Positions 40,021 through 57,365 of a stretch of 64,000 nucleotides of DNA are shown here, in pieces. The position numbers were made by a program, and so were the translations under genes. Source of the DNA: Nitrospirota bacterium (GTDB lineage: Bacteria > Nitrospirota > Thermodesulfovibrionia > Thermodesulfovibrionales > Dissulfurispiraceae); assembly GCA_963790025.1 (NCBI GenBank), contig CAWBMP010000002.1, positions 352,001 through 416,000 of the forward strand, read 5' to 3'. How positions within the stretch are numbered: the stretch's first letter is position 1; every line of letters begins with the position of its first letter. The notes under the pieces are model-generated. The model made no database searches, had not been told where the DNA came from, and saw only the letters and a program-made list of their open reading frames with translations.

Positions 40021-40050
40021 ACAGCTTGCTCCTTTTTGAAGAAATTAATC

Positions 40051-40125
40051 AAATGTTGAACGTTAAATGTTGCCGAGCACTCAAAGCGCCTGTGATTAGC
40101 GTGTTGAGCGCTCGGCAACATTTAA
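40051..40125. repeat. Long hairpin with heptamer (RAAYGTT) units between pstS and pstC
   Basis: 16-bp perfect stem TTAAATGTTGCCGAGC (40063-40078)/GCTCGGCAACATTTAA (40110-40125). Confidence 0.8.
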
Positions 40126-40140
40126 TATCAAGAAGCAACT

Positions 40141-40178
40141 AAAAGGGTCAGGATATATAATACATGCCTGACCCTTTT
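40141..40178 (-). terminator. Hairpin after pstS (terminator or mRNA stabiliser)
   Basis: AAAAGGGTCAGG/CCTGACCCTTTT inverted repeat. Confidence 0.75.
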
Positions 40179-40191
40179 AATTCAATTAACT

Positions 40192-41202
40192 TTAATACAC
40201 GCCATACTCTTTCCAGTAGGCCCTGACCTTGTTCTTTAGGCCTTTGGGAAGCGGCACGTAAATCAGCTCTTTTGCTTTTGCATCCCCGTTCTTGAATGCC
40301 CAATCATAAAACTTAACGGCTTTCATAGCGCTTTCCTTTTTATCCTTGGCAAGCAGAATAAAGGTTGCGCCTGCGATTGGCCAGGAGTTCTTGCCAGGGG
40401 CATTAACGAGCCAGAGATCAAAGTCTTTTTTCGGATCGAAATTCGCTGAGGCAGCAGCATCTTCAAAGGCTTCGAAGCTCGGCTGGATAACTTTTCCTGC
40501 CGAATTTTTCAGCGCTGTATACGCCAGCTTGTTCTGTATTGCATAGGCAAATTCGACGTAGCCGATAGAATTCGGGGCCTGTTTTACATAGTTGGACACT
40601 CCCTCATTCCCCTTACCGCCTATACCGATTGGAAACTTTACAGATGTGCCTGCTCCAACTTTTGTTTTCCACGCAGGACACACATCGCTGAGATAATTGG
40701 TAAATATCGCGGTGGTACCGGAGCCGTCAGACCTATGGACAATGGAAATTTCACTGTGCGGCAATTGAACAGTCGGATTTAGGGACTTGATCTTTGCATC
40801 ATCCCAGAATTTTATCTCGCCAAGATATGCTTTGCATATGGAATCGGAGTCAAGTTTTAATTCGCCGGCTTTTAAGCCAGGCATGCTGACCACTAGAACG
40901 ACCCCTCCCATGACGGCAGGGAACTGGATCAAACCGTCTTTCTTGAGTTGTTCAGAGCTGAGAGGTGCATCGGATGCTCCGAAATCGACCGTCCGGGCTG
41001 AAATCTGCCTGATACCTCCGCCTGAGCCGATGGACTGGTAATTGATCCTGACGCCCGTAGCCTTCTGATAATCATAAGCCCAGGACTGATATACCGGGGC
41101 AGGGAATGATGCACCTGCGCCATTTATTATGTCCTCTGCATGCACCATGCTAAATGACAAGATACAAGCCACTGCTAAAATCAAACTTATTACTGATTTC
41201 AT
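40192..41202 (-). CDS. pstS: Phosphate-binding protein PstS
   Basis: GAGASFP, YQSIGSGGG, VDFGASD, RSDGSGTT, GNEGV. Confidence 0.97.
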   Translation of the reverse strand: MKSVISLILAVACILSFSMVHAEDIINGAGASFPAPVYQSWAYDYQKATGVRINYQSIGSGGGIRQISARTVDFGASDAPLSSEQLKKDGLIQFPAVMGGVVLVVSMPGLKAGELKLDSDSICKAYLGEIKFWDDAKIKSLNPTVQLPHSEISIVHRSDGSGTTAIFTNYLSDVCPAWKTKVGAGTSVKFPIGIGGKGNEGVSNYVKQAPNSIGYVEFAYAIQNKLAYTALKNSAGKVIQPSFEAFEDAAASANFDPKKDFDLWLVNAPGKNSWPIAGATFILLAKDKKESAMKAVKFYDWAFKNGDAKAKELIYVPLPKGLKNKVRAYWKEYGVY

Positions 41203-41240
41203 AGTTATTCCTCCTTTTGTTAGAGCAACTTGGTTATCAT

Positions 41241-41295
41241 AGCATAAGACTTTTTTGTTACGGGAATGTTACAGGAGAGTTAAAAATATATTACA
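41241..41295 (-). promoter_or_regulatory. Pho-box-like array plus -10, pstS
   Basis: Plus-strand hexamers gttacg/gttaca/gttaaa/attaca at 41257, 41268, 41279, 41290; TATGCT 10 nt downstream. Confidence 0.85.
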
Positions 41296-41396
41296 ATCAC
41301 CTCCCGTTATTCATTTTATTCATAAATACAACAGCTTGCTCCATGAGGTAGAGGGCTAAAGGCTAATGTCTAACGAGACGTGCGCCCTTTGTGGCC

Positions 41397-41585
41397 TTAA
41401 AAAAAAGGACATTTCTTATGCTGTTTACTCTTACAATATTCTTCGAGCTGAAACAGACTTGGCACATATGGTGCCTCGCCTGCCTGGCAAGTATATATAA
41501 GCCATTTGGTAAGATAGGGGCATTTCAGGCGCTTGGATTCAACTTTTACAAATCCGTCTTCCCTTCTTGCCGTGCCGCTTATCAT
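41397..41585 (-). CDS. 4-Cys microprotein, copy 1
   Basis: CPYL..C-x17-C-x7-CPFF; paralogous to 50929 and 51281. Confidence 0.7.
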   Translation of the reverse strand: MISGTARREDGFVKVESKRLKCPYLTKWLIYTCQAGEAPYVPSLFQLEEYCKSKQHKKCPFF

Positions 41586-41591
41586 GTGACG

Positions 41592-41846
41592 TTACCCCAT
41601 TCCGATTGCAGCGAGAATTGCCTTGTTAGTTACCATTTCTTTCACATAGTTCTCTATATTAACGAGAGCGGGATCATAGGTGATAACAAGGCTGCCGGTA
41701 ACCGGATTGGCACGGATATCTTTAATACCGTCAGGGACAGGAAGAGCCGACAATTCTTTCAATGTTGCAATAGAAAGTTTCCTGATTATCGGCACCTGCA
41801 ACCTGATGCGTCCAGGAACATGGTGTACCACCTTATAGTCGATCAT
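41592..41846 (-). CDS. Stand-alone HMA_2-domain protein
   Basis: HHVPGRIRL...GI..I.ANPVTGSLVITYD. Confidence 0.85.
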   Translation of the reverse strand: MIDYKVVHHVPGRIRLQVPIIRKLSIATLKELSALPVPDGIKDIRANPVTGSLVITYDPALVNIENYVKEMVTNKAILAAIGMG

Positions 41847-41872
41847 CCACGCACCCCTTGACTTTCTTATTC

Positions 41873-41928
41873 ATTAAATCATAACTATTCTTACAAAATG
41901 ATGAATTTGTTGTTACAACTTAATGACA
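41873..41928 (-). promoter_or_regulatory. Pho-box-like array
   Basis: cttaca/atgaat/gttaca/atgaca at 41890, 41901, 41912, 41923; TTTAAT 11 nt downstream. Confidence 0.65.
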
Positions 41929-42060
41929 TTTCAGCAGAGATACGCGATGCAAGGTGATAGGCCAAAGGTAAAAGGTCAAAGAATTTATAACAGCCTATCT
42001 ATAAATGGGTAGGCGGTGTATAGGCCTAACGGCCTGAACAATTCATTTTTCGATAATGCG

Positions 42061-43254
42061 TTACTGTGATTTAAGCAGGTGGGCTTTATCGGTAATTTCC
42101 CATGGCAGCCCTATATCCATCCTGCCGACGTGTCCATAAGCTGCAAGCTTCCTGTAGAAACCTCCTTTAATCGCTGAAGGGAGGCGTCTCAGCTGAAACT
42201 GCCTTACAATACCTGCAAGCCTGAAATCGAAGTTTTTATCAACCAGGTCGGCAATAACAGTATCGGACAGTCTGCCGGTGCCGAACGTCTCTACCTGAAT
42301 GCTCACCGGATGGGCAAGTCCTATCGAATAACTGAGCTGGATTTCGCACTCGTCAGCAAGACCGGCCGCAACCACATTCTTTGCGGCGTAACGCGCCGCA
42401 TATGCGCCGATCCGGTCAATTCTCATCGGGTCCTTGCCGCTGAGCGCTGCACCGCTGTGGCGAGAGTACTCCCCATATGTATCAATAGCATTCTTTCTCC
42501 CGGTAAGCCCCGAATGGATTGACGGGCCTCCGGTAATAAACTGGCCGTCGGGATTGACGAAAATCCTGGTATCCTTATCCGGCTTCACGGCCTCATCATG
42601 GAATACATTGTCGATAATGGCCTCCCGTACATCACTGGTTAACTGTTTCAGATCAGGACCTGTGCCCTTCCTCTGGCTCGCAATTACCGTTATGCTGTGT
42701 ATCCTGTGAGGACGACGGTCTTTGAACTCCACACCCACCTGGGTTTTGCCGTCCTGGGAAAGATACGGAAGTATCTTCTGAAGTCTCGCTGAAGTGAGCC
42801 GTCTTGCGAGTTTGTGCGCCAGCCATATTGGAAGCGGCATAAATGCGGGAGTTTGCTTACAGGCGAAACCAAAAACCGTAACCTGATTTTTTACCGGGAC
42901 ACTGTCTATTTCACTCTCCGTCATCTCCCGTTCATCAAAACAGCAATCCGGGTCGCGGGGCGATTCTTTGAGGCTTGTTAAAATACTGCACGTTTTCCCG
43001 TTGAATTCCTGCCGTTCATAGCCAATCTGGCTTATCACCTGGCGGGCTATATAGGGGAAGTCCACATAAGCATCTGAGGAGTATCTGGCCGCAATAAAGA
43101 GAATGGAAGTCGAGACGGCGCATTCTGCTATAACGCGCGAGTACGGGTCCTGCTGGAGAAAGTGGTCTACGATAGCATCGCTTATCTGGTCACATAGTTT
43201 ATCTGGGTGCCCCTCGGTCACAGATTCGGATGTAAACATGAAATCTTTTTTCAT
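42061..43254 (-). CDS. Divergent S-adenosylmethionine synthetase (MetK) paralogue
   Basis: FTSESVTEGHPDK, GLTGRK, SGKDP, AAYGH present; GAGDQG signature replaced by PVKNQV. Confidence 0.9.
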   Translation of the reverse strand: MKKDFMFTSESVTEGHPDKLCDQISDAIVDHFLQQDPYSRVIAECAVSTSILFIAARYSSDAYVDFPYIARQVISQIGYERQEFNGKTCSILTSLKESPRDPDCCFDEREMTESEIDSVPVKNQVTVFGFACKQTPAFMPLPIWLAHKLARRLTSARLQKILPYLSQDGKTQVGVEFKDRRPHRIHSITVIASQRKGTGPDLKQLTSDVREAIIDNVFHDEAVKPDKDTRIFVNPDGQFITGGPSIHSGLTGRKNAIDTYGEYSRHSGAALSGKDPMRIDRIGAYAARYAAKNVVAAGLADECEIQLSYSIGLAHPVSIQVETFGTGRLSDTVIADLVDKNFDFRLAGIVRQFQLRRLPSAIKGGFYRKLAAYGHVGRMDIGLPWEITDKAHLLKSQ

Positions 43255-46200
43255 ATCGCTTCACCTCGCATAGTTTTCTTTGTCGCTTCATTGACAACCA
43301 GAGGGAGTACCGCGCTTCCACCGATTACAAGGGCATCGGTAAGATTTATCATCGTAGTTCCGAGCAGTCCTCTTAGTCCGGGCACCGCTATTGTCAGGGC
43401 CTGCAGCGCAAAAGACCCCCCAAGGGCAACGTCCAGATATCTGTTCGCGGGCAGCCGCTCCTTGTCGAACATACTCAGTCTCTCAGAACGGCAGCTTATG
43501 GCATGCAGAAGCTGACTTGAGGTGAGACTCATAAAGGCCAGGGTCCCTGCCTGAGCTCCAGGACCGTACCGCATGACGCCATATCCGTAAGCTCCGAGCG
43601 CAGTCGCACTCATCATCGCAGATTCGAAACCGATCCTTTTAAAGTCACTGCTCATGATAATAGGATGGTTAGGATTACGCGGAGGCTTGCTTAGGACGTC
43701 GGGTTCAGGGAGTTCAAGTGCCAATGCGAGCCCGGGGAATATATCGGATATGAGGTTGATCCAGAGCAATTGCATCGCACTAAGCGGCTGTCCAAGACCG
43801 GCGGCAGTGGCGGTGAACATTACCATAATTTCGCTCAGGTTTGTCGACAGGATGAAGTGCAACGATTTTCTGATATTGTTATAAATGGTGCGTCCATGAC
43901 TTACCGCGATAATCATGGTCTCAAGATTGTCGTCTTCGAGCACAATATCCGCCACCTCACGAGCGACGTCTGTGCCGGTGTGGCCCATTGCAATTCCTAT
44001 GTCGGCTGCCTTGAGCGCAGGGCCGTCATTAATACCGTCACCGGTCATGGCGACAACTTTCCCTGTGCTCTGCAGGGCCTGCACAATTTGAAGCTTATGC
44101 GCCGGACTCACGCGGGAAAAGACATGGACCCGCCCGGCAAGCGCTTTCATGACATCGGGTTCAATATCCGTAAGGTGCGTCGAATCAAGAATTTCGAGTT
44201 GTTCTCCGTTGCTCAGGTCCAGCTCGTTTCCGATGGCATAGGCCGTCGGCGTCTGGTCCCCGGTTATCATAACTGTTTCTATGCCGGCTGAGTGGAAAAC
44301 GCCGATCAGTTCCTTGACCCCCCTTCTCGTAGGGTCTGCCATACCTACAAGACCGAGCCAGACGAAACCGCTGGTGATGTCGCAGGCACTGCTTCCGTTT
44401 TCTATATGTTGATACGCGATGCCGAGGATCCTGAGTGCTTCACCGGCCATTCGTTCATTTTCCGTTTCCATTGCGAGCCTGTCATCAACTGAAATCGGGA
44501 ACTTTTCGCCGTCCTTTATATACAAGTCGCACATTTCCAGCACTTCTGTAGGGCTGCCTTTCAGTGCTATGATCTTGCCCTCGGGGCCGAAGTCATGTTG
44601 GGTGGCCATATAATTGCGGTTTTCAGCACGGTAACATATTTTCAGTAACGGGTACATCTTTCTGATTTGAATGATGTCGACGCCTGCACAAATCGCCATA
44701 TGCATCAGGGCATTCTCGGTTGGTGATCCCCGCAGCACATATCTTCCTTCTCCATTTTCATAACAACTGCTTTCTGCAGGCGCCTCACCGGCATGTTCTT
44801 TTACGCTGATTTCAGATTCGTTGCATAGCACAGATATATGAATAAGCCTCATGAACTCGTCCGAGGCATAGGGGTTAACTGTCTCAACCCCGACCATAAA
44901 TTTGCCGTCCCTTGCCTTTATTCTCTTCATTCCTGTATAAATTGCAACAACCGACATCCTGTTCAATGTTATAGTGCCGGTCTTGTCCATACATATAGTT
45001 TGCACAGAGCCGAGAGTTTCGACTGCGTTGAGATGACGGATAAGGACTTTATGCCGTCTCATATTCCTGATTCCGAGAGCGAGGGTCGTGGTGGCAACGG
45101 TCGGCAGCCCTTCGGGGACCGCTGCTACAGCAAGAGAAATCGAGCTTTTAAGCATCTGGATGAAACCGTATCCCCTGAGCAGCCCTATAAGGAAAACAAC
45201 ACCGCAGACAGCCCCGCTGATCAACACAAGCTGTGTACCCATTTTCTTGAGCTGCCGCTCCATAGGTGTCTCGGGAGACTCCGCAGCTCCCACGAGTTCC
45301 TGTATTTTTCCTATCTCAGTAAACTTTCCTGTGGCCACGACCACTGCAAGGCCCTGTCCCCCCGTAACCAGGGTGCCCATATAGGCCATGTTGACCCTAT
45401 CAGCAAGCGGCACATTGTCTTCGTCTATGCTCTCTGTAGTCTTCACGACCGGCAGGCTCTCGCCGGTAAGCGCAGATTCATCGACGCTCAGATAGGTCGC
45501 TTCAATCAGCCTGCTGTCGGCGGCAATATAGCTGCCGGGCCTGAACACCAGCATATCGCCAACGACCACCTCCTCGGCAGGGATATCTTTAAAAATACCG
45601 TCCCTTATGACAAGCGAGGATGGCCTTACAAGACTTTTGAGCGAGTTAATGGTTTTTTCCGCCTGGCTCTCGGTGACATAGCCGATGACCGCATTGATGA
45701 CCACTACTCCGGCAATAACCACAGCATCAGCGACGCCGCCAGTCACTATCGAGAGACCGGCTGCAACACCCAGCAGGGCATTCGGGATCGAATTGAATTG
45801 ATCGATAAGAATACTGAATGCTGAACGTGGAACTGATTCAGGGAGCAAATTGGGGCCGAATTTCTTTAGTCTGGCTTGAGCGCTATCAGTTGAAAGACCG
45901 GCAGTTGCCGAGGAACCCAAACGCTTAAGGACTGCGGATGGTGCTTCGGTATGCCATGCCTCTACCGTCTGGTCTTCCGCGTGTTCAACAAGTCTTCTTA
46001 ATTTTCCCCTGCTTTTTACTGGGACAGAAGACCGGACAACATTGGCCTTGCCGCTTTCTACAACAGGGAAAGGGTACCCGGGCGCAGTCTCTGACTGAGT
46101 AACTGTATTTGCAGCCTGCTGAAAGTCGCCGCCTTGATATTCGCGGACGATATCATGAATAAGATGCGCTATGGCATGAGGGGTATTGAAGGAATTGAAA

Positions 46201-46364
46201 TAGACGAGAACACTGCCGGTCAATATGTTTATTGAGACGTCACTAATCCCCTCTAAGCCAGAAAGGCCTGATTCAAGGTGTTTTTTTAGAGATTCCGAAC
46301 GACGAAGCCCCTCTACCTTGTATCGGACCCTTCCCGGCACTGCCGCATGTACTGTCTCGACCAC
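43251..46364 (-). CDS. P-type ATPase (P2A, Ca2+-type motifs) with an N-terminal HMA_2 domain
   Basis: TGES, VAAVPEGLP, DKTGT, MITGD, GDGIND, M5 STNLSE, M6 WINLISD; N-terminal VPGRVR..NILTGSVLV. Confidence 0.93.
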   Translation of the reverse strand: MVETVHAAVPGRVRYKVEGLRRSESLKKHLESGLSGLEGISDVSINILTGSVLVYFNSFNTPHAIAHLIHDIVREYQGGDFQQAANTVTQSETAPGYPFPVVESGKANVVRSSVPVKSRGKLRRLVEHAEDQTVEAWHTEAPSAVLKRLGSSATAGLSTDSAQARLKKFGPNLLPESVPRSAFSILIDQFNSIPNALLGVAAGLSIVTGGVADAVVIAGVVVINAVIGYVTESQAEKTINSLKSLVRPSSLVIRDGIFKDIPAEEVVVGDMLVFRPGSYIAADSRLIEATYLSVDESALTGESLPVVKTTESIDEDNVPLADRVNMAYMGTLVTGGQGLAVVVATGKFTEIGKIQELVGAAESPETPMERQLKKMGTQLVLISGAVCGVVFLIGLLRGYGFIQMLKSSISLAVAAVPEGLPTVATTTLALGIRNMRRHKVLIRHLNAVETLGSVQTICMDKTGTITLNRMSVVAIYTGMKRIKARDGKFMVGVETVNPYASDEFMRLIHISVLCNESEISVKEHAGEAPAESSCYENGEGRYVLRGSPTENALMHMAICAGVDIIQIRKMYPLLKICYRAENRNYMATQHDFGPEGKIIALKGSPTEVLEMCDLYIKDGEKFPISVDDRLAMETENERMAGEALRILGIAYQHIENGSSACDITSGFVWLGLVGMADPTRRGVKELIGVFHSAGIETVMITGDQTPTAYAIGNELDLSNGEQLEILDSTHLTDIEPDVMKALAGRVHVFSRVSPAHKLQIVQALQSTGKVVAMTGDGINDGPALKAADIGIAMGHTGTDVAREVADIVLEDDNLETMIIAVSHGRTIYNNIRKSLHFILSTNLSEIMVMFTATAAGLGQPLSAMQLLWINLISDIFPGLALALELPEPDVLSKPPRNPNHPIIMSSDFKRIGFESAMMSATALGAYGYGVMRYGPGAQAGTLAFMSLTSSQLLHAISCRSERLSMFDKERLPANRYLDVALGGSFALQALTIAVPGLRGLLGTTMINLTDALVIGGSAVLPLVVNEATKKTMRGEAI

Positions 46365-46370
46365 GTAACT

Positions 46371-47039
46371 TTATTCTTCCCTTTTCGTTTTATGCTTTGT
46401 AGAAATTTCAGCCGGCCCGCTGGAAGAGGGTCCTGATGCAGACGAACGCGGCAGCGCGGAGCCGGCAATTTCCTTAACTCCGGAAACGACGCCGACCAGC
46501 ATGTCCTTTACAGCTCGCACTGCCGTATTCCCGATCGAGCCCGCGGCCTCTATTGCCCCGCCAACAGCGACAGTAGCGGCCTCTTCGACATTCCCACCTA
46601 CTTCTTTCGTAGCTTCAATTACACCGTCAACGGCCCTTCTCGCTACGAGTGCCACATCGGCACCGACTTCGGCAGCCCCCTTGACAGCGCCCTTAACGGT
46701 CTGCTCGGCAACTTTCATAACATCCCCGCCAACATCGCTGACGCCCATTACGATGCCCTTGGCAACGCTTTTGGTGCTCAGGATTAAGCCTGTGCCGACC
46801 TCTTCCGTAGCCTGAATTGCACCTTTTACCACATCTGCGGTAATAGTAACACCTTCATTAGCCACAGATGCAGTCGCTTTCAGGGTATTCGATACAGTAT
46901 TTCTGACAAGACTCACGATTTCCGCCTCGATTTCGTTTATCCCCTTCAGACTGCTTACAATCCCCTCTTTCACCTTTGTTCCGGCTGCGCCAATATATGC
47001 AGCCCCCTCTGAACCGACCTTCCCTTCGCTCTTAGCCAT
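46371..47039 (-). CDS. Ala/Val/Gly-rich protein with 22-residue amphipathic repeats
   Basis: GGAGG SD before ATG 47039; six or more tandem 22-mers. Confidence 0.85.
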   Translation of the reverse strand: MAKSEGKVGSEGAAYIGAAGTKVKEGIVSSLKGINEIEAEIVSLVRNTVSNTLKATASVANEGVTITADVVKGAIQATEEVGTGLILSTKSVAKGIVMGVSDVGGDVMKVAEQTVKGAVKGAAEVGADVALVARRAVDGVIEATKEVGGNVEEAATVAVGGAIEAAGSIGNTAVRAVKDMLVGVVSGVKEIAGSALPRSSASGPSSSGPAEISTKHKTKREE

Positions 47040-47123
47040 GATAATGCCCTCCATTTTTACACCTTTTAATTGTGTTGTTTTTAGCGTGCCGTAAAGTAGC
47101 GGCGTCACGGCGCATAGCTGCCG

Positions 47124-47609
47124 CTACTTTCTCTCCTCATCAGCGGCAGCAGGCAATGATTTCAGAAATACGTTTAATGCATACCAGAAGGCGGTATACC
47201 ACGCAGGAGCTGCAAAGTTTCCACTTGCAATTTCGTAAACACCGAACCCGACAAGAGTAACGAAAGCAACTCCGGGTACATCCACTTCGTTACCGGTAAA
47301 TTTTTTCACTTTTTTATCAAAGCCACTGAAAGCATTGACAATATTGGCGGACAGAGCTGTGGTCCGTGGCCCTTTTTTGAGCTTGAAAAGTGCCTTTCCC
47401 TCGGCAAATGCTGCAATGGCCTTTAAATCAGCAGTATGTATAAATAACAGACTGCCTGTCAGGGCATTTGCATGGACCTGCTCAACTCCCTCAAATTGCG
47501 CAAAGTGATCCTGCAAAGCAGAGAAGTAGGCGGCATCTCCTTTCCTTCCAGGCACTTTTACCCTGAATCTTCCAGGCGTTGCGTGGCTCAAAATGGCTTC
47601 AGGTATCAT
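47124..47609 (-). CDS. HMA_2-domain protein with a hydrophobic C-terminal segment
   Basis: HATPGRFRV...ANALTGSLLF; APAWYTAFWYA. Confidence 0.85.
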   Translation of the reverse strand: MIPEAILSHATPGRFRVKVPGRKGDAAYFSALQDHFAQFEGVEQVHANALTGSLLFIHTADLKAIAAFAEGKALFKLKKGPRTTALSANIVNAFSGFDKKVKKFTGNEVDVPGVAFVTLVGFGVYEIASGNFAAPAWYTAFWYALNVFLKSLPAAADEERK

Positions 47610-47896
47610 TAAGCTCCTGTTTTGTCCTCGGGGTTAATGCCGGTTGTTTCAGTATGAGATTCTGCCATTTCAGCCTTTACCTCCGCAACGATATCTTCCA
47701 TCATTTCCCCTGCTTCCGCGAAAGTCTCTCTGCTTTTTTCATAGAGTATAAGGCCGCCCTTTATTGCAGCTTTTGCAATCGGTTTTACGACTCCTGCAAT
47801 CGCAGGAATCACCTGCGGGGCAAATAGGGCCGCGCCAATACCTATAGCCAATCCTGTAAGGATATTACCTTTTAACCCATTTTCAAATAGTGCCAT
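47609..47896 (-). CDS. DUF5132-like protein
   Basis: GLAIGIGAALFAP..KPIAKAAIKGG..YEK..AEAGE..EDIVAE. Confidence 0.85.
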   Translation of the reverse strand: MALFENGLKGNILTGLAIGIGAALFAPQVIPAIAGVVKPIAKAAIKGGLILYEKSRETFAEAGEMMEDIVAEVKAEMAESHTETTGINPEDKTGA

Positions 47897-48063
47897 GGTT
47901 TCCTCCTTGTCGGTCTTTAAGTAAAGTGTATATTAATATGGGTTCAAAGTAAATGTAACCCAAACTTTTCATTACTTGCCTACTTTCAAGACAGGTAATC
48001 AGGAGACAGTTAAAGAATTCTTCACTGTTAAAACCTTTGCTGTGACATGTTAAAACCTTTGTC

Positions 48064-48091
48064 TTGACACTCTTCATTTTTCGGCTATACT
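48064..48091 (+). promoter_or_regulatory. Sigma70-type promoter
   Basis: TTGACA-16 nt-TATACT. Confidence 0.65.
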
Positions 48092-48093
48092 TT

Positions 48094-48125
48094 AATTGGA
48101 GCGTATATAAATTGGAGCGTATATA
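48094..48125 (+). repeat. Exact 16-bp tandem duplication
   Basis: AATTGGAGCGTATATA x2. Confidence 0.9.
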
Positions 48126-48144
48126 AAAAGGGAGGTGCATCGCT

Positions 48145-48306
48145 ATGCCTATTGAAGTGAGCGTCACAGAACGGGAACTGCTGAAGAAGATCCTCAATTC
48201 GTATCTTTCAGAGCTGAGACTTGAGATCGTCGAAACGAAACACGACAAATCGTCCCTCCATGAAGAAGAGAACCTCGTAAGAGGGCTGCTGCAAAAGGTA
48301 TCCTAA
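48145..48306 (+). CDS. 53-aa helical hypothetical protein (not in the ORF track)
   Basis: GGGAGGTG SD; MPIEVSVTERELLKKILNSYLSELRLEIVETKHDKSSLHEEENLVRGLLQKVS*. Confidence 0.8.
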   Translation: MPIEVSVTERELLKKILNSYLSELRLEIVETKHDKSSLHEEENLVRGLLQKVS

Positions 48307-48328
48307 CTGTTGTTATGCCTTGTTCCCC

Positions 48329-48370
48329 GCCGAAGCTACCCGCTCCACCCGGGTGGCTTCGGTCGATTTT
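48329..48370 (+). terminator. Intrinsic terminator
   Basis: CCGAAGCTACCC/GGGTGGCTTCGG stem with a short T tail. Confidence 0.65.
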
Positions 48371-48387
48371 AACAGCGTAATAGATTA

Positions 48388-48443
48388 TGTAACTTAAAAT
48401 TAATATTTCTGTAAAACTGCTTTAACCCTCTATCCTTTAAACT
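48388..48443 (+). promoter_or_regulatory. Pho-box-like array plus -10, olsB/olsA-like operon
   Basis: tgtaac/attaat/tgtaaa/tttaac at 48388, 48399, 48410, 48421; TAAACT 11 nt downstream. Confidence 0.75.
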
Positions 48444-48583
48444 ATACAAATTCACATCGTGACATCAGAAATAATGAATATCCAATTTTACTATGTTACC
48501 AAGCACTTAAAGCGTATATGGATAATGTATTGAGTGTCCTGCGACATGCAGCATTCAACATTTCCCATAGAGGAGGTGCATTT

Positions 48584-49378
48584 ATGGAACACACTCAATG
48601 TACGGTTCTGAGCATGCGCAACGGTAATTTTATTGTGAAACTTGCTGAATACCATGAGGAACTGGTTAAAGCACTCAGACTGCGTTTTGATGTATTCAAT
48701 AGAGAATTGAACGAGGGTCTTGACAGCTCTTATATGACCGGGATGGACCGGGACAGTTACGATGACTATTGCGACCATCTTATTGTAATCGATACAAGAT
48801 GTAACAAGGTTGTAGGCACCTATCGCCTCCTCCTTGGTTCGGTCGCAGAAAGCAATATCGGCTATTATTCGGAGGGTGAATTCGACATGACCGGCATCAA
48901 GGCTATAGGTGGAGAGAAACTTGAACTCGGCCGATCCTGCGTCCACAGTGATTACAGGAATGCAGGTGTCATCAACCTGCTTTGGGCCGGCATAGCGCGG
49001 TACGTGGAAATGTACGATGTACGCCATTTATTCGGCTGCGGCAGCCTGCACACCGATGACCCTGTTGAAGTAAGCATGGTATACTTTTATATGAACACGT
49101 TTCACCGCTCGGGCGCCGAATTTACGGTGTACCCCATGAAAAAGCTGCGCGGGGTCGGCTTATGCCCTATTGTGGACCAGAAAACCGCGTTCGATAAACT
49201 TCCCCCGCTTATTAAGGGATACCTGCGGCTCGGAGCACTTATATGCGGAGAGCCGGCCTACGACGACGTATTCGGCACTACCGATCTCTATCTGCTACTG
49301 GAAACCGAAAAGTTGATCTCCCGGTATAAAAGGAGGTTTTTCCAGGAGCCAAACGAGACGTTATGCCGGGCATCGTAA
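48584..49378 (+). CDS. GNAT N-acyltransferase, OlsB-like (amino-lipid synthesis)
   Basis: LRFDVF, D.YDDYCDHL, VVGTYRL, YSEGEFD, ELGRSCV, PPLIKGYLRLGA. Confidence 0.85.
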   Translation: MEHTQCTVLSMRNGNFIVKLAEYHEELVKALRLRFDVFNRELNEGLDSSYMTGMDRDSYDDYCDHLIVIDTRCNKVVGTYRLLLGSVAESNIGYYSEGEFDMTGIKAIGGEKLELGRSCVHSDYRNAGVINLLWAGIARYVEMYDVRHLFGCGSLHTDDPVEVSMVYFYMNTFHRSGAEFTVYPMKKLRGVGLCPIVDQKTAFDKLPPLIKGYLRLGALICGEPAYDDVFGTTDLYLLLETEKLISRYKRRFFQEPNETLCRAS

Positions 49379-50157
49379 AAATCCGAAAATTATTTCTCCT
49401 TCTTATAGTTAGCCTTTTCGTTTTTGTCTGTGGTATCCTGATCAAAGTCTTTCCCCTTGAACAGGGTCGAAAATTGAGTCTTCAGACACGCTTCATGCGG
49501 TTATGGGCACGGTCCGGCTGTTTCATCCTCGGCATCAATATTGCCTCCACCGGCTCATATAGAGCTGACGATGTTTTTTTTATCGTGAGCAATCATTGCA
49601 GCTATATCGATATACTTATTATCGGCAGTCTGATTCCATCCGTATTCGTTTCAAAAAGTGATGTGGCCTCATGGATATTCCTTGGGAGGATGGTAAAACT
49701 TGCCGGGACCATTTTTGTCAACCGGGAATCCAAAACAGCTTCGGTCAGAGCAATGGAGGCCATTAAGGAGCGACTTGCAAACGGCATCAATGTTGTGGTT
49801 TTTCCTGAAGGTACCACCAATAACGGACTTGCTATCAGAGATTTCAAGAGCACCTTTTTCAAGGCGCCCATCGACAGTAACGTGCCTGTTTTGCCTGTGA
49901 GCATTATTTATTCGCACATAGATCGAACTCCCGTGACACCCGGCACAATAGACGCCGTCGCCTGGCACTCAGACATGGAGTTTCTTTCTCATTTTTGGAA
50001 CCTTCTCGGTATCGGGAGGATTGACGCGCGTATTCATTTCAGTCCGCCCCTCTACCATTTTACCGAAAACAGAAAAATACTTTCTTCTTTTGTCTTTGAG
50101 AAAGTCAGAGATGGAATAGAAATTGGAAGATGTTTTAGAGAAGAAGATACTTGTTGA
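49363..50157 (+). CDS. PlsC/OlsA-like lysolipid acyltransferase
   Basis: NHCSYID (HX4D), FVSK, FPEGT; overlaps the upstream GNAT gene. Confidence 0.88.
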   Translation: MPGIVKIRKLFLLLIVSLFVFVCGILIKVFPLEQGRKLSLQTRFMRLWARSGCFILGINIASTGSYRADDVFFIVSNHCSYIDILIIGSLIPSVFVSKSDVASWIFLGRMVKLAGTIFVNRESKTASVRAMEAIKERLANGINVVVFPEGTTNNGLAIRDFKSTFFKAPIDSNVPVLPVSIIYSHIDRTPVTPGTIDAVAWHSDMEFLSHFWNLLGIGRIDARIHFSPPLYHFTENRKILSSFVFEKVRDGIEIGRCFREEDTC

Positions 50158-50206
50158 ATGGGACAATTAGCCTGGCGGCAAGAAAGCGGCTGCGTTCGCG
50201 GCAGTT

Positions 50207-50578
50207 TTATATCAGGACAGCTAATATTGAGAGGGCCGAACCTTCCAATGCCTGCTGGACAAAGGCACCCAAAACCGCCCTGCCCACGATATGACCGGCT
50301 GTTTTAGCTGCTCCATGAATATACTGATCAGTGGTTGCCGCCTTTGTCGTATCGAAATAACCTTTTCTCTGCAATATATTGATAATATCGTTGTGGCCGG
50401 TCATTTTGGGGTTATAGTTTACCAGAAGACTACCGGTAGTAAGGTTAATATCGATTGTCGCAATACCCTGCAGCTGACTTAATGTCTTTTTTAACTCGTT
50501 AGCCACGTTTTCGTTCTTTTTTATTACAGGGCTTTTTATTCTGAGTCTTCCAGGCACATTATGAATGTAATAGCTCAC
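50207..50578 (-). CDS. HMA_2-domain protein
   Basis: HNVPGRLRI...INLTTGSLLVNY; AGGAGGAG SD. Confidence 0.85.
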   Translation of the reverse strand: MSYYIHNVPGRLRIKSPVIKKNENVANELKKTLSQLQGIATIDINLTTGSLLVNYNPKMTGHNDIINILQRKGYFDTTKAATTDQYIHGAAKTAGHIVGRAVLGAFVQQALEGSALSILAVLI

Positions 50579-50873
50579 TATCTCCTCCCTTCATGTCAAT
50601 TTTCGTGAATGTTTTACAATCTGGATATCCCGAACACCTGAACCGCAATATTTTTTCTTCCCTTTTATATAAATGCATCATTCTTCCGCAAACCGGGCAC
50701 AGAGGCCTGTTTTTTACTTCAAATCTTACGGCACCGGCGCTAAACTGCCTGCCGCATATAAGACATAGGAACCTCTGTTTTCCCTGCCACGTCTTACCAT
50801 ATTTATACACGGCATCCAACTTGCAGTGCGGGCATTTAGTTGTAAAGCTTTGTGTCACCGCATCTGCTGTCAT
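50559..50873 (-). CDS. Double zinc-ribbon protein (IS1 InsA-like ribbon + topoisomerase C4-like finger)
   Basis: CPHC..KYG...GKQRFLCLIC; CPVCG.MM..RFRCSGYPDC. Confidence 0.75.
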   Translation of the reverse strand: MTADAVTQSFTTKCPHCKLDAVYKYGKTWQGKQRFLCLICGRQFSAGAVRFEVKNRPLCPVCGRMMHLYKREEKILRFRCSGYPDCKTFTKIDMKGGDSELLHS

Positions 50874-50894
50874 GTAATATTTAATCAAATTATG

Positions 50895-50933
50895 GTTACA
50901 CGACTATGACAGTTTTGTTACTTTTGTGTTAAA
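50895..50933 (-). promoter_or_regulatory. Pho-box-like array
   Basis: gttaca/atgaca/gttact/gttaaa at 50895, 50906, 50917, 50928. Confidence 0.8.
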
Positions 50934-51144
50934 TCTCGGCACACCGGGAAAACTCGGATAGCTTGCCATCCCAAGCAGGCTGCAATGCGCAAAAATAAAT
51001 CGAACACGCTTCATGATGACGGCCCATGCATACTTTAATATTGACATCTCTCATGTCTTTAATAAGTCTGTCCGCCGCATAGCAGTGAGCACCTTCAGAG
51101 GTCCCCTTAAGGTAAGGGCACATTATAAGACTTTGCATATTCAT
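50929..51144 (-). CDS. 4-Cys microprotein, copy 2
   Basis: GGAGG SD; CPYL..C-x17-C-x7-CSIY. Confidence 0.75.
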   Translation of the reverse strand: MNMQSLIMCPYLKGTSEGAHCYAADRLIKDMRDVNIKVCMGRHHEACSIYFCALQPAWDGKLSEFSRCAEI

Positions 51145-51165
51145 AATACCCTCCATACCATAGAT

Positions 51166-51221
51166 AGAATAGCAGTTGAATTGTTACAAGAATATTAAAA
51201 TAATGTTACATTCTTGTAACA
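51166..51221 (-). promoter_or_regulatory. Pho-box-like array plus -10
   Basis: gttaca/attaaa/gttaca/gtaaca at 51183, 51194, 51205, 51216; TATTCT 11 nt downstream. Confidence 0.75.
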
Positions 51222-51280
51222 AAGAATTAATCGGTTCTGGGTCATAGAAAAATTATATTTTAACTCGGGGCACATACTCT

Positions 51281-51487
51281 TTATCTACTTCGCAAGGTCC
51301 TGGCAAGGAAAATTGGACAATTATCATAATTCTCGTTATCGCAATGACCTGCCCTTCTGTTTGTATCGATTACCATTCGTGAAAGAGAGGCTGCACAAAT
51401 ACCGCTCTCGTCATTGCAATACGGACAGTTATGCTCCTCACGTATAACGGCATAAATAGCTTCGCTCCTGGTTGCACACGTGTCCAT
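51281..51487 (-). CDS. 4-Cys microprotein, copy 3
   Basis: AGGGGG SD; CPYC..C-x17-C-x7-CPIF. Confidence 0.75.
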   Translation of the reverse strand: MDTCATRSEAIYAVIREEHNCPYCNDESGICAASLSRMVIDTNRRAGHCDNENYDNCPIFLARTLRSR

Positions 51488-51498
51488 ATAAGTGCCCC

Positions 51499-52728
51499 CT
51501 AGGCGAATCGCCCCTTTATAGCATCGATAATTCTGTAACGCAACGACCAGAAACCGTTTTCGGGACATGGGAACAGCATCGAATCTTTGCCGATACTATA
51601 CCGGTTACCCCTCCATACAACAGTATTGCTGACAATCGGTACAGACCATATGAGCCCGATAACAAGGTCTTTAATCGGGGAGAGCAAATAAAGAAAAGGG
51701 TTATCCATTTCGGTTTCCGTCTTTCTGCCAATATAAAAGTCGCCTGCCACTTTAAGGAGGGAGGTGAGAATCGCAAAGGTCACCGTCAATTTGGAGCACT
51801 CCCAGAATACGATCGGTAACGATGACATGAACACAGGATTCCCAACTAATTCGAATATATATCTCACCCCTCCGATCTTCCACCTGATCTTACCCCATCT
51901 TGTGTGGCGGTTAAGGAATCGACTCATTCCCCAGTATTCATTCACGTTTTGCACCATGTACCTGGACAGCACCACTTTTTTGCCGCTTTTATGCATTCTT
52001 TCACCGATAACATAATCCTCGGCAAGAATATCTTTTACCGATCTGAGCCCGCCGATTGCTTCCAAATCCTTTTTTTTCATCAGCATGGACTTTCCTACCA
52101 CACAGGGCATTTTCAAAAATTTATCAAGAAAACACACGCTTCCCATAATAAAAGAATTAAGGTGGAGGTTTTCAAATACGGAACCCAGCGAACGGCCGCC
52201 GACACCTTTTATAATATTGCTTACTAATCCGACTTCATGGCCTGTTTCCGGCTGGCTGATATGACTGGTTATCTCCGTAAGATAATTTGAGTCAACCATT
52301 ACATTGCTGTCGCTGATAAGAATATACTCATACTTTGAAGCCTTGTAAGCTGGAAGAAGATTATTGACCTTGGGATTGAGGCCTATAGAGGAATCTTTTA
52401 CAATAATGGTGATGTCCTTGTCCTGGTTTTTTTCCTGTATTTTTTGTGCTATTTTGTATGCAGGATCATTATGGCTCTGAAGAGAGAATATAATCTCATA
52501 TTCAGGATAGTCCTGTGCGCAAAAGCTCAGGAGATTGTCAAATAGATTATCATCCAGGCCCTTAAGCGGCTTAAGTATCGAAATTGGAGGAAAAAGTCGG
52601 GGAAGGGCCCGTTGCCCTTCCCCGCAGTTACAGGGAGTGGAAAGATATGAGCGTACTGCCCATATTTGGAAGCCGTAAGCGACGAGACCTAAAAAAGTAA
52701 CAAATGCGAAGAACCAGAATATACCCAT
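51499..52728 (-). CDS. Ceramide glucosyltransferase/HpnI-like glycosyltransferase (GT21/GT2)
   Basis: N-terminal TM, PISILKPLKG, GLNPKVNNL, ISDSN, LAEDY, RxxRW. Confidence 0.88.
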   Translation of the reverse strand: MGIFWFFAFVTFLGLVAYGFQIWAVRSYLSTPCNCGEGQRALPRLFPPISILKPLKGLDDNLFDNLLSFCAQDYPEYEIIFSLQSHNDPAYKIAQKIQEKNQDKDITIIVKDSSIGLNPKVNNLLPAYKASKYEYILISDSNVMVDSNYLTEITSHISQPETGHEVGLVSNIIKGVGGRSLGSVFENLHLNSFIMGSVCFLDKFLKMPCVVGKSMLMKKKDLEAIGGLRSVKDILAEDYVIGERMHKSGKKVVLSRYMVQNVNEYWGMSRFLNRHTRWGKIRWKIGGVRYIFELVGNPVFMSSLPIVFWECSKLTVTFAILTSLLKVAGDFYIGRKTETEMDNPFLYLLSPIKDLVIGLIWSVPIVSNTVVWRGNRYSIGKDSMLFPCPENGFWSLRYRIIDAIKGRFA

Positions 52729-52750
52729 ACTTCCACCTCCTTTGAAGCAC

Positions 52751-53440
52751 TTAGTTTCTGAAAAGGGTAATTGCCACCCCTTTATTATGTTTGATGCATT
52801 GTTTCACTGCTGCCGTATCTTTCTCGCAATTGAGAAGTGTCTTCCATGAATACAGGTGACGCGCCTTGTGAAAATCGCTATTGGCGAGATAAGGATACTT
52901 TTTAAGGCTTATTACATTAAAAACATCGTCCCTGTTTGCCACTTCCCATGCATCGATGTATTTGGCATATTTTTCCCTGTTGTTCCAGAGGAAAAGCGTG
53001 TCCTTGCTCATGTCCGACATATAATGCGGGTGGCAGGCCACTATCAGCGCATCCTGCTCCTTTGCCTCGGAAAATATTTTTTCGTAGTTCCAGGAGGCAG
53101 AAATAAAATCTTTTATATCAATTAGCAGCATATGGGCCGATTTGTCGGATGACAGATGGTTTTTGCTGATTTCAACTCCTGGGATCACCAGCATCCCGTA
53201 CTTGTCCCATGCCCTTTCAGCTTCCTCTTTGACATGTTCCATATACTCGTCGAAATTGTCTTCTCTCACTGTAAGATTGAAGCGATGGGCAAACTTTCCG
53301 ATCGAGTTGACTTCACTTACTACATGGTCCGTAATTGCGATAACATCGAACCCTGCCTGTCCAAAAAGGTCGACGGTCCGTTTTAACTCTACTGAACCGT
53401 CGGAGTAGGTGGTGTGTATATGGAAATCGCATAAAAGCAT
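52751..53440 (-). CDS. PHP-domain metallophosphoesterase
   Basis: DFHIHTTYSDG, AITDH, PGVE, CHP, NSDFH. Confidence 0.9.
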   Translation of the reverse strand: MLLCDFHIHTTYSDGSVELKRTVDLFGQAGFDVIAITDHVVSEVNSIGKFAHRFNLTVREDNFDEYMEHVKEEAERAWDKYGMLVIPGVEISKNHLSSDKSAHMLLIDIKDFISASWNYEKIFSEAKEQDALIVACHPHYMSDMSKDTLFLWNNREKYAKYIDAWEVANRDDVFNVISLKKYPYLANSDFHKARHLYSWKTLLNCEKDTAAVKQCIKHNKGVAITLFRN

Positions 53441-53447
53441 CACATAC

Positions 53448-53513
53448 ATACTATTATTTATTCGGTTACAGGATTATTAAGGGCTTATTAAGATTGTGTT
53501 ACGTTATGTTACG
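53448..53513 (-). promoter_or_regulatory. Pho-box-like array plus -10
   Basis: gttaca/attaag/attaag/gttacg at 53465, 53476, 53487, 53498; TAGTAT 11 nt downstream. Confidence 0.8.
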
Positions 53514-53534
53514 AAAATATGGGATGGGCTTTTC

Positions 53535-54776
53535 TTACGATCTGCTTTTTATTATATATGCGTAATACGCCGCGGCATTAGTAGGCTTGCGTTCCATTGT
53601 GTCGAAATCGACCCTGTACAGGCCAAACCTGGCATCGAGACCTTGCAGCCATTCGTAGTTATCTATAAGCGTCCAGTAGAAATAGCCCCTTACGTCGATA
53701 CCGTCCTTAATGCTTTTCTCAAGCGCATCCACATGCCTGCTCATGTATTTTATTTTTTTCTGGCCGTCATGGGTTGCGATACCGTTCTCCGTGATAATCA
53801 GCGGCACTTTAAGCCTTGACGCATATCGCAGGACTTTCTCAAGGCCGCGCGGATGTACTTCCCATCCCATGTCGGTCAGCCCATATCCGTCTATATCCAT
53901 GTGCCTCAGTTCAATACCCATCTTTTTAAACGGGTTAAACCGAATATGCACCCGCGTATAATAGTTGACACCAAAAAAATCCAGTTTGTTTTGTATGGGG
54001 ACCTGAATTGTTATTTCCTTTGTAAAGGGGAACTTTATGCGGACCGTGCCGGTTAAAAAGGCATCAAGCAGCGAGTGGTTGTAAAAATACTTGGCGATTT
54101 TTACAAGAAGCCTGTCAAGCGGGTTGTACCGTTTCCAGGACGCCAGGGCCGCCATATTATGAGCTACGCTTACCATCGCGGTACTTCCATTGTCCTTTGC
54201 CAGTTCATGAATAATGTCGTAAGACCTTCCGTGGCAGATAAGAATGTTTTGCAGTGCCTTTACGGCAAGCAGGGGATCACGAATGCCAGGCGGCACGCAG
54301 CCTTCGAGATATCCGCCAAGCAAGAGCACATAGGGTTCGTTAAATGTTATCCAGTACCGTACCCCCTTGAGCGTTGTTACCACTTTTTGGGCAAATCTTA
54401 AAAATTTCTCGACTGAAGCATCCTCATGCCACGGATATTTTTTGATGAACCACAAAGGATGGGTAAAGTGATGGATTGTGACCATCGGTTCGATATTGTT
54501 CTGTATAAGAATATCGATTATCTCCTGGTAATGGGCCAGCGATGCATCGTCCCAGACGTTTTCTCTCGGCTGGATCCTGCTCCACTCCACGGAAAAACGG
54601 TAGGAGTTGACACCAAGGTCTTTGAGCAGGTTCAGGTCTTCTTTGTAAAGTGTATAATGACTGGTGACATTAGGTTTTTCGGCAAGAATTGCGTCCCATG
54701 ATGTCCAGTCTGCGTGTGGAGAACCTTCAAGTTGAAAGGCAGATGTAGCTACGCCCCAGAGAAATCCTTTATTCAT
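53535..54776 (-). CDS. Glycoside hydrolase family 1 (beta-glucosidase-like)
   Basis: FLWGVATSAFQLEG, YRFSVEWSRI, TFNEP, ITENG, DNYEW. Confidence 0.95.
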   Translation of the reverse strand: MNKGFLWGVATSAFQLEGSPHADWTSWDAILAEKPNVTSHYTLYKEDLNLLKDLGVNSYRFSVEWSRIQPRENVWDDASLAHYQEIIDILIQNNIEPMVTIHHFTHPLWFIKKYPWHEDASVEKFLRFAQKVVTTLKGVRYWITFNEPYVLLLGGYLEGCVPPGIRDPLLAVKALQNILICHGRSYDIIHELAKDNGSTAMVSVAHNMAALASWKRYNPLDRLLVKIAKYFYNHSLLDAFLTGTVRIKFPFTKEITIQVPIQNKLDFFGVNYYTRVHIRFNPFKKMGIELRHMDIDGYGLTDMGWEVHPRGLEKVLRYASRLKVPLIITENGIATHDGQKKIKYMSRHVDALEKSIKDGIDVRGYFYWTLIDNYEWLQGLDARFGLYRVDFDTMERKPTNAAAYYAYIIKSRS

Positions 54777-54939
54777 CAAAACCGTTTCAGTCCCGCCAAT
54801 CCCATCTTAATCGTACAGCCATAACAGACATCTCCTTTAAACGCGCTCATACTCCCGTACTCATCAGCCGTGCTGACAAGTTGCCAGGCCATCACTAACT
54901 GCTTGTTTGTCTTCAACTATTTAAAATCATTGACGCCGA

Positions 54940-54995
54940 AGTATACAATAACTAATGTTACAGAAATATGACAAAGGTATGAAGCCTCAGTAACC
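54940..54995 (-). promoter_or_regulatory. Pho-box-like array plus -10
   Basis: gttaca/atgaca/atgaag/gtaacc at 54957, 54968, 54979, 54990; TATACT 11 nt downstream. Confidence 0.75.
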
Positions 54996-55031
54996 CGCCA
55001 TAAGTAAGCAACACGCAGCAGCCTCTTTTTG

Positions 55032-57254: not shown

Positions 57255-57365
57255 AAGGACCGGGCACTGCCATTTAATTATACGCTAAAAAGAGCATTTT
57301 GTCTTGAATCATACGCTCCGTATAACGTATTATTAATTTTATCTTAACTATTGCCGGAGGGTTGA

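Follow-up and report, generated by a model that had tools for sequence, protein, structure and literature searches.

Seven predicted Pho-box arrays connect phosphate uptake, membrane-lipid and CoBaHMA genes in a Nitrospirota gene cluster

Why should genes for phosphate uptake, putative lipid enzymes and a set of small hypothetical proteins all be preceded by the same kind of repeat? The question is raised by a 64,000-nucleotide (nt) stretch of the genome of a Nitrospirota bacterium of the family Dissulfurispiraceae (assembly GCA_963790025.1, contig CAWBMP010000002.1, positions 352,001 to 416,000 of the forward strand), hereafter called the window, which between positions 41,241 and 54,995 contains seven arrays of hexamers repeated every 11 base pairs (bp). 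A first reading made from the letters alone (the sequence-only reading) regarded them as Pho-box-like promoter elements of one phosphate-starvation regulon lying beside pstSCAB-phoU. Our analysis supports that view, and we put at about 0.88 the probability that the seven arrays are Pho boxes, i.e., predicted sites of the genome's phosphorylated PhoB-type regulator, that drive seven transcription units. PhoB binding and induction by phosphate limitation are properties that we infer from sequence. We identify the arrays as Pho boxes because of the statistics of the motif, the canonical Pho targets that share it, its geometry relative to the -10 element, its conservation in relatives, the presence of a phoB/phoR-like gene pair in the genome and its likeness to defined Pho boxes.

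The strands of the seven intergenic stretches were read in the sense of the downstream gene and then anchored on the proximal hexamer. With both strands read, all seven sites contain four hexamers with an exact period of 11 bp, and the orientation of each array matches that of the gene downstream. This re-reading confirmed the arrays where they had first been described; the minus-strand coordinates of that description mark the low end of the proximal hexamer, and 48388, on the plus strand, the start of the distal one. We scored each array with a matrix built from the 28 units, summed over four units and applied to both strands. The highest score in the genome, 42.3 bits, belongs to array 5 (51183-51221, minus strand), in front of the gene for a small Cys-rich protein, microprotein 2, and is followed after 11 nt by the -10-like hexamer TATTCT. 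Array 1 (41257-41295, minus strand) reaches 41.6 bits over its four units, has TATGCT at 10 nt and would be the promoter element of pstSCAB-phoU. Array 4 (50895-50933, minus strand; 38.1 bits, TAAATA at 11 nt) precedes the genes for a Zn-ribbon protein and a 123-residue protein with the Pfam domain HMA_2, and array 6 (53465-53503, minus strand; 34.4 bits, TAGTAT at 11 nt) those for a PHP-family phosphoesterase and a glycosyltransferase of family 21 (GT21). Array 3 (48388-48426; 32.4 bits, TAAACT at 11 nt), the only one on the plus strand, lies before a pair of olsB-like and olsA-like genes. Array 2 (41890-41928, minus strand; 28.2 bits, TTTAAT at 11 nt) precedes the genes for an 84-residue HMA_2 protein and a 62-residue Cys-rich protein. 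Array 7 (54957-54995, minus strand; 23.3 bits, TATACT at 11 nt), in front of a gene for a glycosidase of family 1 (GH1), has two strong proximal units.

The 28 units share the consensus (T/C)(G/T)T(A/C)A(C/T)A. Every unit has T at position 3 and A at position 5 (28/28 each), while G is found at position 2 in 19 of the 28 and C at position 4 in just 5. The information is carried by the hexamer and the A that follows it, the other four spacer positions holding 0.07 to 0.39 bit, and both spacers and flanks are unrelated from one array to the next. Since the information sits in the hexamer positions, the arrays represent aligned binding-site units and not copies of one repeated element.

We then asked how often such arrays occur by chance. 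Eight peaks in the window exceed 10 bits, the seven arrays and an opposite-strand reading of the microprotein-2 array. In the whole 3.45-Mb genome, 23 peaks exceed 18 bits, against a mean of 0.3 (maximum 1) in 10 order-3 Markov genomes, and 20 exceed 22 bits, against none in those genomes. When each array was left out of the matrix in turn, the seven ranked 2, 2, 3, 9, 11, 20 and 24 among all genome peaks. A chance origin in AT-rich intergenic DNA, or the spread of a small repeated element, might still seem attractive given that the hexamers are A/T-rich and that intergenic-like DNA, obtained by masking open reading frames (ORFs) of at least 120 residues, has a guanine-plus-cytosine (GC) content of 0.417 (1,233 segments, 371,583 bases). 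However, this DNA, which makes up 10.8% of the genome, contains 19 of the 23 peaks above 18 bits, compared with a mean of 0.15 (maximum 2) in 20 dinucleotide-preserving shuffles. Thus, the motif is not a property of AT-rich intergenic DNA as such, as it would be were it equally frequent after shuffling, the outcome named as a refutation in the sequence-only reading. The comparisons with Markov genomes and shuffles refute a chance origin, and together with the unrelated spacers and flanks and the retention of arrays at orthologous promoters they leave the chance or repeated-element explanation with practically no credit.

The position of the arrays relative to the -10 element bears on how they would work. 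The six -10-like hexamers listed in the sequence-only reading were found again, at 10 nt from the proximal hexamer for pstS and at 11 nt for the other five. For a systematic count over offsets 0 to 29, a hexamer had to match TATAAT in four or more of its six positions, including the A at position 2 and the T at position 6. Such a hexamer is present at offset 10 or 11 in five of the seven training sites and in 8 of 15 non-training sites elsewhere in the genome; no other offset occurs more than three times among the training sites or among the others. As the matrix stops five bases past the proximal hexamer, the -10 counts as independent of it. A fixed distance of this kind is the layout of activator sites that substitute for the -35 element, in agreement with the original proposal that the boxes replace the -35. 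PhoB dimers bind head-to-tail on 11-bp direct repeats and activate transcription by contacting sigma-70. Two dimers would fit along the same helix face on four head-to-tail units and, as the arrays occupy the -35 position 10 to 11 nt before the -10, bound PhoB would recruit the sigma-70 RNA polymerase.

Could the arrays instead be operators at which bound PhoB chiefly represses or fine-tunes transcription? Two sites give this idea some footing. The microprotein-2 array (51182-51225) can be read on both strands, with 25.3 bits on the plus strand, and the distal unit of the Zn-ribbon array overlaps the stop codon of the gene upstream, that of microprotein 2. Against it, the fixed 10- to 11-nt gap to the -10 in the absence of a recognizable -35 is the geometry of a PhoB-activated promoter, and pstS and phn, genes that are activated in all studied systems, share this geometry. 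We therefore consider an operator function very improbable and retain the view that the arrays are activator sites. The opposite-strand score itself arises because TGTAACA and TGTTACA are near mirror images; it likewise occurs at the pstS arrays of several relatives, and in this genome no credible gene lies downstream of the microprotein-2 array on the plus strand.

A matrix built from the seven arrays should also find other members of the regulon, a check proposed in the sequence-only reading, and the genome scan did so. Apart from the training sites and the reverse reading, 15 peaks remain, and the genes behind 13 of them were translated and scanned against Pfam. Arrays precede phnH-phnI-phnJ (29.8 bits), phnF (GntR/UTRA)-phnD (23.5 bits) and a gene for a 714-residue secreted phosphoesterase of PF04185 (28.4 bits), the family that includes phospholipase C and acid phosphatase. 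Other sites precede genes plausibly connected with phosphate or the envelope, namely those for a TonB-dependent receptor and ExbB, proS-ppx (a weak site) and a glycosyltransferase-like/cytidylyltransferase/transketolase set. Also in this group, an 18.2-bit array at G000:C2:132017 (L020 362-4044; G000 denotes this genome) heads an 814-residue PHP_C+GT4 fusion protein and a radical-SAM (S-adenosylmethionine) protein; the fusion parallels the separate PHP and GT21 genes of the window. Only 812 bases past the end of the window, serA-lgt is preceded by an array of 31.8 bits (G000:C2:416812, L009) that is followed by a -10 after 10 nt; serA, for 3-phosphoglycerate dehydrogenase, is an unexpected Pho target. 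The remaining arrays include those before a bactofilin gene, a STAS-protein gene, and a DksA/TraR-type gene accompanied by genes for APS-kinase-like (adenosine 5'-phosphosulfate) and isochorismatase proteins.

The sequence-only reading had noted that no phoB/phoR lies in the window, and this is correct. The genome has only four full-length OmpR-type regulators, and the best candidate pair is adjacent at G000:C2:148763-150706, approximately 200 kb from the window, with the phoB-like gene at C2:150008-150706. The regulator scores 269 bits against the PhoB model (cut-off 296.2) and 271 bits against YycF; the kinase scores 296 bits against PhoR (cut-off 334.2) and 364 bits against PnpS (cut-off 400). 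We call the pair phoB/phoR-like because these scores fall below the curated cut-offs and the YycF match is equal.

We next considered whether the motif is conserved. A DNA search with window positions 40100-57300 matched the cluster in all nine genomes of the same genus, at 72 to 84% identity, and gave partial matches across the family. We mapped seven same-genus genomes and two genomes of other genera, locating genes by tblastn and arrays by the matrix, and counted an array as conserved when it exceeded 12 bits and lay upstream of, and oriented with, the orthologous gene. The pstS and 84-residue HMA_2 arrays were each conserved in eight of eight relatives, the microprotein-2 array in nine of nine (once weakly) and the PHP array in all eight relatives that hold the genes. 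The Zn-ribbon array was found in seven of nine. A strong olsB array (>25 bits) was present in six of nine; two more had weak arrays, both in genomes without an olsB match, and one had none. The array near GH77 was variable, from none to 29 bits. Array position and orientation are kept even though the flanking DNA is merely 70 to 83% identical, and the 84-residue HMA_2 and 62-residue Cys-rich proteins are 57 to 84% identical by tblastn. Further away, a correctly oriented pstS array of 25 to 41 bits was found in all seven genomes from additional genera of the order, and an array lies approximately 370 bp upstream of a 123-residue-type HMA_2 gene in six loci from other genera. As the relatives share ancestry, these counts represent a footprint and not a statistical test. 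Taken with the targets found by the matrix, they favor the originally proposed phosphate-starvation regulon beside pstSCAB-phoU, of which phosphate responsiveness is the predicted property.

Several observations weigh against this identification. The matrix was trained on the very sites that it ranks, which is mitigated by the leave-one-out ranks and the 15 non-training sites, and shared ancestry makes the counts in relatives non-independent. The GH1 array, the weakest of the seven, has just two good units, its distal units scoring -1.2 and 3.4 bits. No array precedes the phoB-like gene, which directly follows aroB and whose best upstream four-unit score is -20 bits. The regulator and kinase fall below the curated equivalog cut-offs, and the YycF score of the predicted PhoB equals its PhoB score. 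The organism is known from assembled environmental DNA alone, and of the sequencing runs listed as containing window positions 48300-55100 none is RNA and two, with shares of 0.36 and 0.10, are DNA. Finally, the bactofilin, STAS, DksA/TraR-type and serA targets have no known tie to phosphate.

Some of these points would be accounted for if the arrays were bound by a different OmpR-family regulator, one responding to envelope, cation or osmotic stress, with pst and phn merely included in its regulon. OmpR-family regulators all use 11-bp direct repeats, and the genome encodes three other full-length members with neighboring kinases; the score of the PhoB candidate, below the curated cut-off and equal to that for YycF, and targets with no known role in phosphate metabolism, to which the CoBaHMA (HMA_2) genes can be added, fit such a regulator as well. 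However, the best-scoring and most conserved sites head pstS, phnF-phnD, phnHIJ and the PF04185 phosphoesterase, i.e., the textbook Pho core, and the hexamer agrees with the experimentally defined PhoB box of Desulfovibrio vulgaris (PMC3333781). We thus judge another regulator of the family to be unlikely, though less so than the operator function discussed above, and assign the arrays to the PhoB-like protein.

If the arrays are Pho boxes, phosphate shortage would lead to their occupation by PhoB and to the joint activation of the seven units. The first, pstSCAB-phoU (36808-41202, minus strand), would provide high-affinity phosphate uptake; pstS (40192-41202; PBP_like_2) and phoU (36808-37479; PhoU) were identified by Pfam, and pstC, pstA and pstB, between them, are named by position and size alone. 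The plus-strand unit comprises an N-acyltransferase gene (48518-49378; Acetyltransf_5) and an O-acyltransferase gene (49363-50157; Acyltransferase), whose best NCBIfam matches are OlsB (182 and 173 bits, below the equivalog cut-offs of 320 and 350) and OlsA (156 and 119 bits, below the cut-off of 300). The products of 48518-50157 are thus best named as predicted OlsB-like and OlsA-like aminolipid acyltransferases, and they would take part in the synthesis of an ornithine-type aminolipid.

The PHP phosphoesterase gene (52751-53449, minus strand; Pfam PHP, 36.9 bits) is followed by the GT21 gene (51499-52728, minus strand), whose best NCBIfam match is HpnI (237 bits, below the cut-off of 310). 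The closest match of the PHP protein, TM0559 (PDB 2anu, E value 9e-63), is uncharacterized. Most likely, the two enzymes would remove phospholipid head groups and then synthesize glycolipids. That the PHP protein may work like PlcP is suggested by gene order and by the PHP_C+GT4 fusion elsewhere in the genome; as the fusion sits behind an array of its own, it supports a coupled role of phosphoesterase and glycosyltransferase. The cell would in this way replace phospholipids by aminolipids and glycolipids. The GH1 gene (53535-54779, minus strand) encodes a predicted cytoplasmic glycosidase, and its enzymatic role, like those of PHP and GT21, is a prediction. Between array 7 and GH1 (54779-54957), a deletion in this genome has left an 11-codon remnant of an EAL-CBS-GGDEF protein. 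In a same-genus relative (G008, L032 5297-7420), the array is followed by genes for a 76-residue Cys-rich microprotein, a 616-residue EAL-CBS-GGDEF protein and GH1.

The remaining units bring small proteins into the same predicted response, namely two units with CoBaHMA (HMA_2) proteins, one containing the Zn-ribbon protein and the other a Cys-rich microprotein, and the lone microprotein 2. The HMA_2 scores (PF19991, gathering cut-off 30) are 35.4 bits for the 84-residue protein (41592-41846, minus strand) and 55.8 bits for the 123-residue HMA_2/HMA protein (50207-50578, minus strand), which has a C-terminal hydrophobic tail. The gene for the latter overlaps that of the 109-residue Zn-ribbon protein (50559-50888, minus strand). 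The 62-residue protein (41397-41585, minus strand) is an ORF product paralogous to microprotein 2 (75 residues, 50929-51156, minus strand), whose gene is the sole one behind array 5. They belong to a family of Cys-rich microproteins of 58 to 76 residues, several of which start with a CP(Y/H)L-type motif and whose members lie repeatedly behind Pho-box arrays (also at L031 10995-11469 and L032 7190-7420). A protein atlas look-up of microprotein 2 returned unnamed Nitrospirota clusters only.

Not all of the cluster is under the arrays. The description of 14 kb wired by them holds for the seven transcription units, but not for a 6-kb operon of five genes (42061-47896, minus strand) in their midst. 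It begins with a DUF5132 gene (47609-47896) and continues with genes for a 161-residue HMA_2 protein (47124-47609; 47.4 bits), a 245-residue amphipathic repeat protein (46371-47108) with segments rich in V, G, A, K and E, a P2A-like P-type ATPase with an N-terminal HMA_2 domain (43251-46364; 43.0 bits) and a metK-like paralog with altered MetK motifs (42061-43254). No array above 10 bits in the window is oriented with this operon, and its nine aligned upstream regions contain only a conserved core promoter and one (A/T)GTAAT hexamer. In this genus, no array precedes the gene for the 245-residue protein either (best scores, -5 to -21 bits). That protein resembles surface-coating proteins in style and is 61% identical to its Nitrosospira counterpart. 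A Pfam scan assigned no family to it, to the 62-residue protein or to microprotein 2, no search having been aimed at calcyanin or the GlyZip repeat.

This genome carries the block 42069-47995 in inverted orientation. In each of the eight relatives examined, the block is divergent from the 84-residue HMA_2 gene and the shared intergenic array points to HMA_2. A 121-residue ORF near the breakpoint (47883-48248, minus strand) was rejected as a gene: conservation stops at 47995, and the opposite strand holds a 53-residue ORF (48145-48306, plus strand) with a ribosome-binding site, a hairpin-plus-T-run terminator and no Pfam match. DNA resembling 48145-48306 is found elsewhere in two relatives (G007:C5 and G005:C8, 78 to 79% identity).

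The sequence-only reading also called the cluster an accessory island. As it is conserved across the genus, with matches in all nine genomes, it is not accessory at that level; over longer range the term is apt, as HMA_2 genes are patchy in the order and occur in only 15 of the 61 genomes sampled. The GC content of the cluster is 0.42 to 0.53, compared with 0.47 for the genome. Of the genes scanned against Pfam and NCBIfam, none matched an integrase or a complete transposase, and the Zn-ribbon protein matches just IS1-type N-terminal zinc-binding domains in these databases.

Beyond the genus, the relationship between arrays and the ATPase genes is different. In other genera, arrays lie directly before 245-residue-protein, ATPase or metK-like genes, with scores of 29.5 (G014), 18.8 (G060), 26.6 (G071) and 20.6 bits (G059). 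Among HMA_2 loci, 30 were returned and 29 scanned (91,945 bases) after the window's own (L143) had been dropped; 19 of the 29 have at least one peak above 16 bits, for approximately 40 peaks in all, and 12 of the 14 other genomes are represented. The two HMA_2 loci of this genome outside the window have no peak above 16 bits. By way of comparison, this genome in its entirety has 23 peaks above 18 bits.

The closest public relatives of the ATPase, at 77 to 87% identity, come from Nitrospirota or Dissulfurispiraceae assemblies, and CoBaHMA-headed ATPases at approximately 50% identity from Nitrosospira, Sedimenticolaceae, Competibacteraceae and other gammaproteobacterial assemblies. At the proteobacterial loci, a metK-like gene directly follows the ATPase gene in six of seven cases and DUF5132 is nearby in six of seven. 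The cluster-linked metK-like copies of both phyla (including L055-L062) lack GAGDQG and have a changed GGGxFSGKD stretch, and GAGDQG is present in the second metK of this genome (G000:C2:720137-721267, 44% identical to the cluster copy) and in a solved MetK. The role of the cluster protein may differ from that of an ordinary SAM synthetase. Two of the seven proteobacterial ATPase clusters have a four-unit peak beside DUF5132 (27.4 and 18.5 bits), and two more loci have two-unit boxes, for which no chance rate was computed; the matrix used came from another taxon. Pho-like boxes at these copies, before small ORFs without known role, are thus a lead only. At two gammaproteobacterial loci (L057 13203-16310 and L060 14952-18018), a four-unit Pho-like array beside DUF5132 is followed by genes for a 42-residue membrane peptide, a glycine-zipper-like protein of 85 to 90 residues and a CitMHS-type transporter.

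Because arrays are carried here by the small CoBaHMA units and the Cys-rich microproteins, and by the ATPase genes in three genera of two families, we tentatively propose that CoBaHMA, DUF5132, amphipathic-repeat, CoBaHMA-headed calcium-type P-ATPase and MetK-like proteins might form one module, conserved between Nitrospirota and Proteobacteria and controlled by phosphate starvation. We regard this as possible, with the odds against it. If true, the domain that marks calcyanin in carbonate-forming cyanobacteria would act in a phosphate-linked process, which could consist in handling anionic lipid, polyphosphate or a store of cations set free during phosphorus scavenging.

Within the literature searched, no Pho box is described in Nitrospirota; the terms "Pho box" and "Nitrospir" co-occur in a review on microbial arsenite oxidation. 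The switch itself is ordinary. Its value lies in providing an annotation tool and a testable regulon in a phylum with few cultured members, and in assigning a candidate condition, phosphate limitation, to CoBaHMA/HMA_2 proteins, Cys-rich microproteins, a Zn-ribbon protein, a PHP-GT21 pair and a cytoplasmic GH1 protein. It also predicts that anaerobic sediment bacteria would replace phospholipids by aminolipids and glycolipids, a point of relevance wherever phosphorus-free lipids serve as environmental markers (PMC5193443, PMC11181052).

How does this predicted regulon compare with known systems? For the CoBaHMA genes, the nearest parallel is the ccyA (calcyanin) neighborhood of Microcystis, where a CoBaHMA membrane-hairpin protein and DUF5132 adjoin ccyA; the CoBaHMA domain, to which HMA_2 corresponds, was described first from calcyanin (bioRxiv 10.1101/2024.07.07.602159), and contact of its basic patch with anionic lipids has been suggested (bioRxiv 10.64898/2025.12.07.689555). 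The two neighborhoods share a CoBaHMA membrane hairpin and DUF5132 beside a calcium transporter gene, but the transporter is a Ca/H exchanger there and a P2A-like ATPase here, and the accessible part of the former report describes no phosphate-regulation link for CoBaHMA.

The lipid genes recall the PlcP-glycosyltransferase (Agt/Pgt) lipid-remodeling operons, which carry Pho boxes (PMC4796936); GT21 Pgt enzymes make glycosyl-diacylglycerols during phosphate deprivation (PMC8231724), and phosphorus-free lipids are made under phosphate stress elsewhere (PMC5193443). In both cases, a Pho box is followed by a phosphoesterase gene and, immediately after it, by a gene for a lipid-type glycosyltransferase. 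In contrast to those operons, the phosphoesterase here has the PHP fold, closest to TM0559, and is not PlcP-type, while the GT21 protein best matches HpnI below the cut-off; both activities are predictions.

With respect to the motif, the cyanobacterial SphR box consists of PyTTAAPyPy(T/A) repeats with 3-nt gaps (PMC4195498). Its 11-bp period, its YTTAAY core, which corresponds to the TTTAAC and CTTAAT units, and its several repeats before the -10 are all found in our arrays. Unlike the SphR box, however, these have G more commonly at position 2, and the phylum is a different one. The Escherichia coli Pho box is alike in that 11-bp direct repeats replace the -35 approximately 10 nt before the -10, that strong promoters have two boxes (four repeats), and that pst and phn are core targets. 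The E. coli phoBR operon is autoregulated, whereas no box precedes the phoB-like gene here. The hexamers also differ, being TGTAAC, TTTAAC or CTTAAT instead of TGTCAT, the E. coli consensus being CTGTCAT with a 4-bp spacer (PMC3333781).

The closest counterpart comes from D. vulgaris, which belongs to another phylum and for which binding is experimental, in contrast to the predicted binding here. Four-unit arrays and lipid or CoBaHMA targets are not described for its PhoB in the accessible part of the report (PMC3333781). Nevertheless, the targets of that protein (DVU1083) include pstSCA, phoU and HD/EAL phosphodiesterase genes, and relative G008 has its EAL-CBS-GGDEF gene behind the array next to GH77. 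Moreover, the DVU1083 box determined by DAP-chip (DNA affinity purification with microarray detection), (c/t)GT(n)AC, is a short direct repeat of the same hexamer as that of the seven arrays (PMC3333781).

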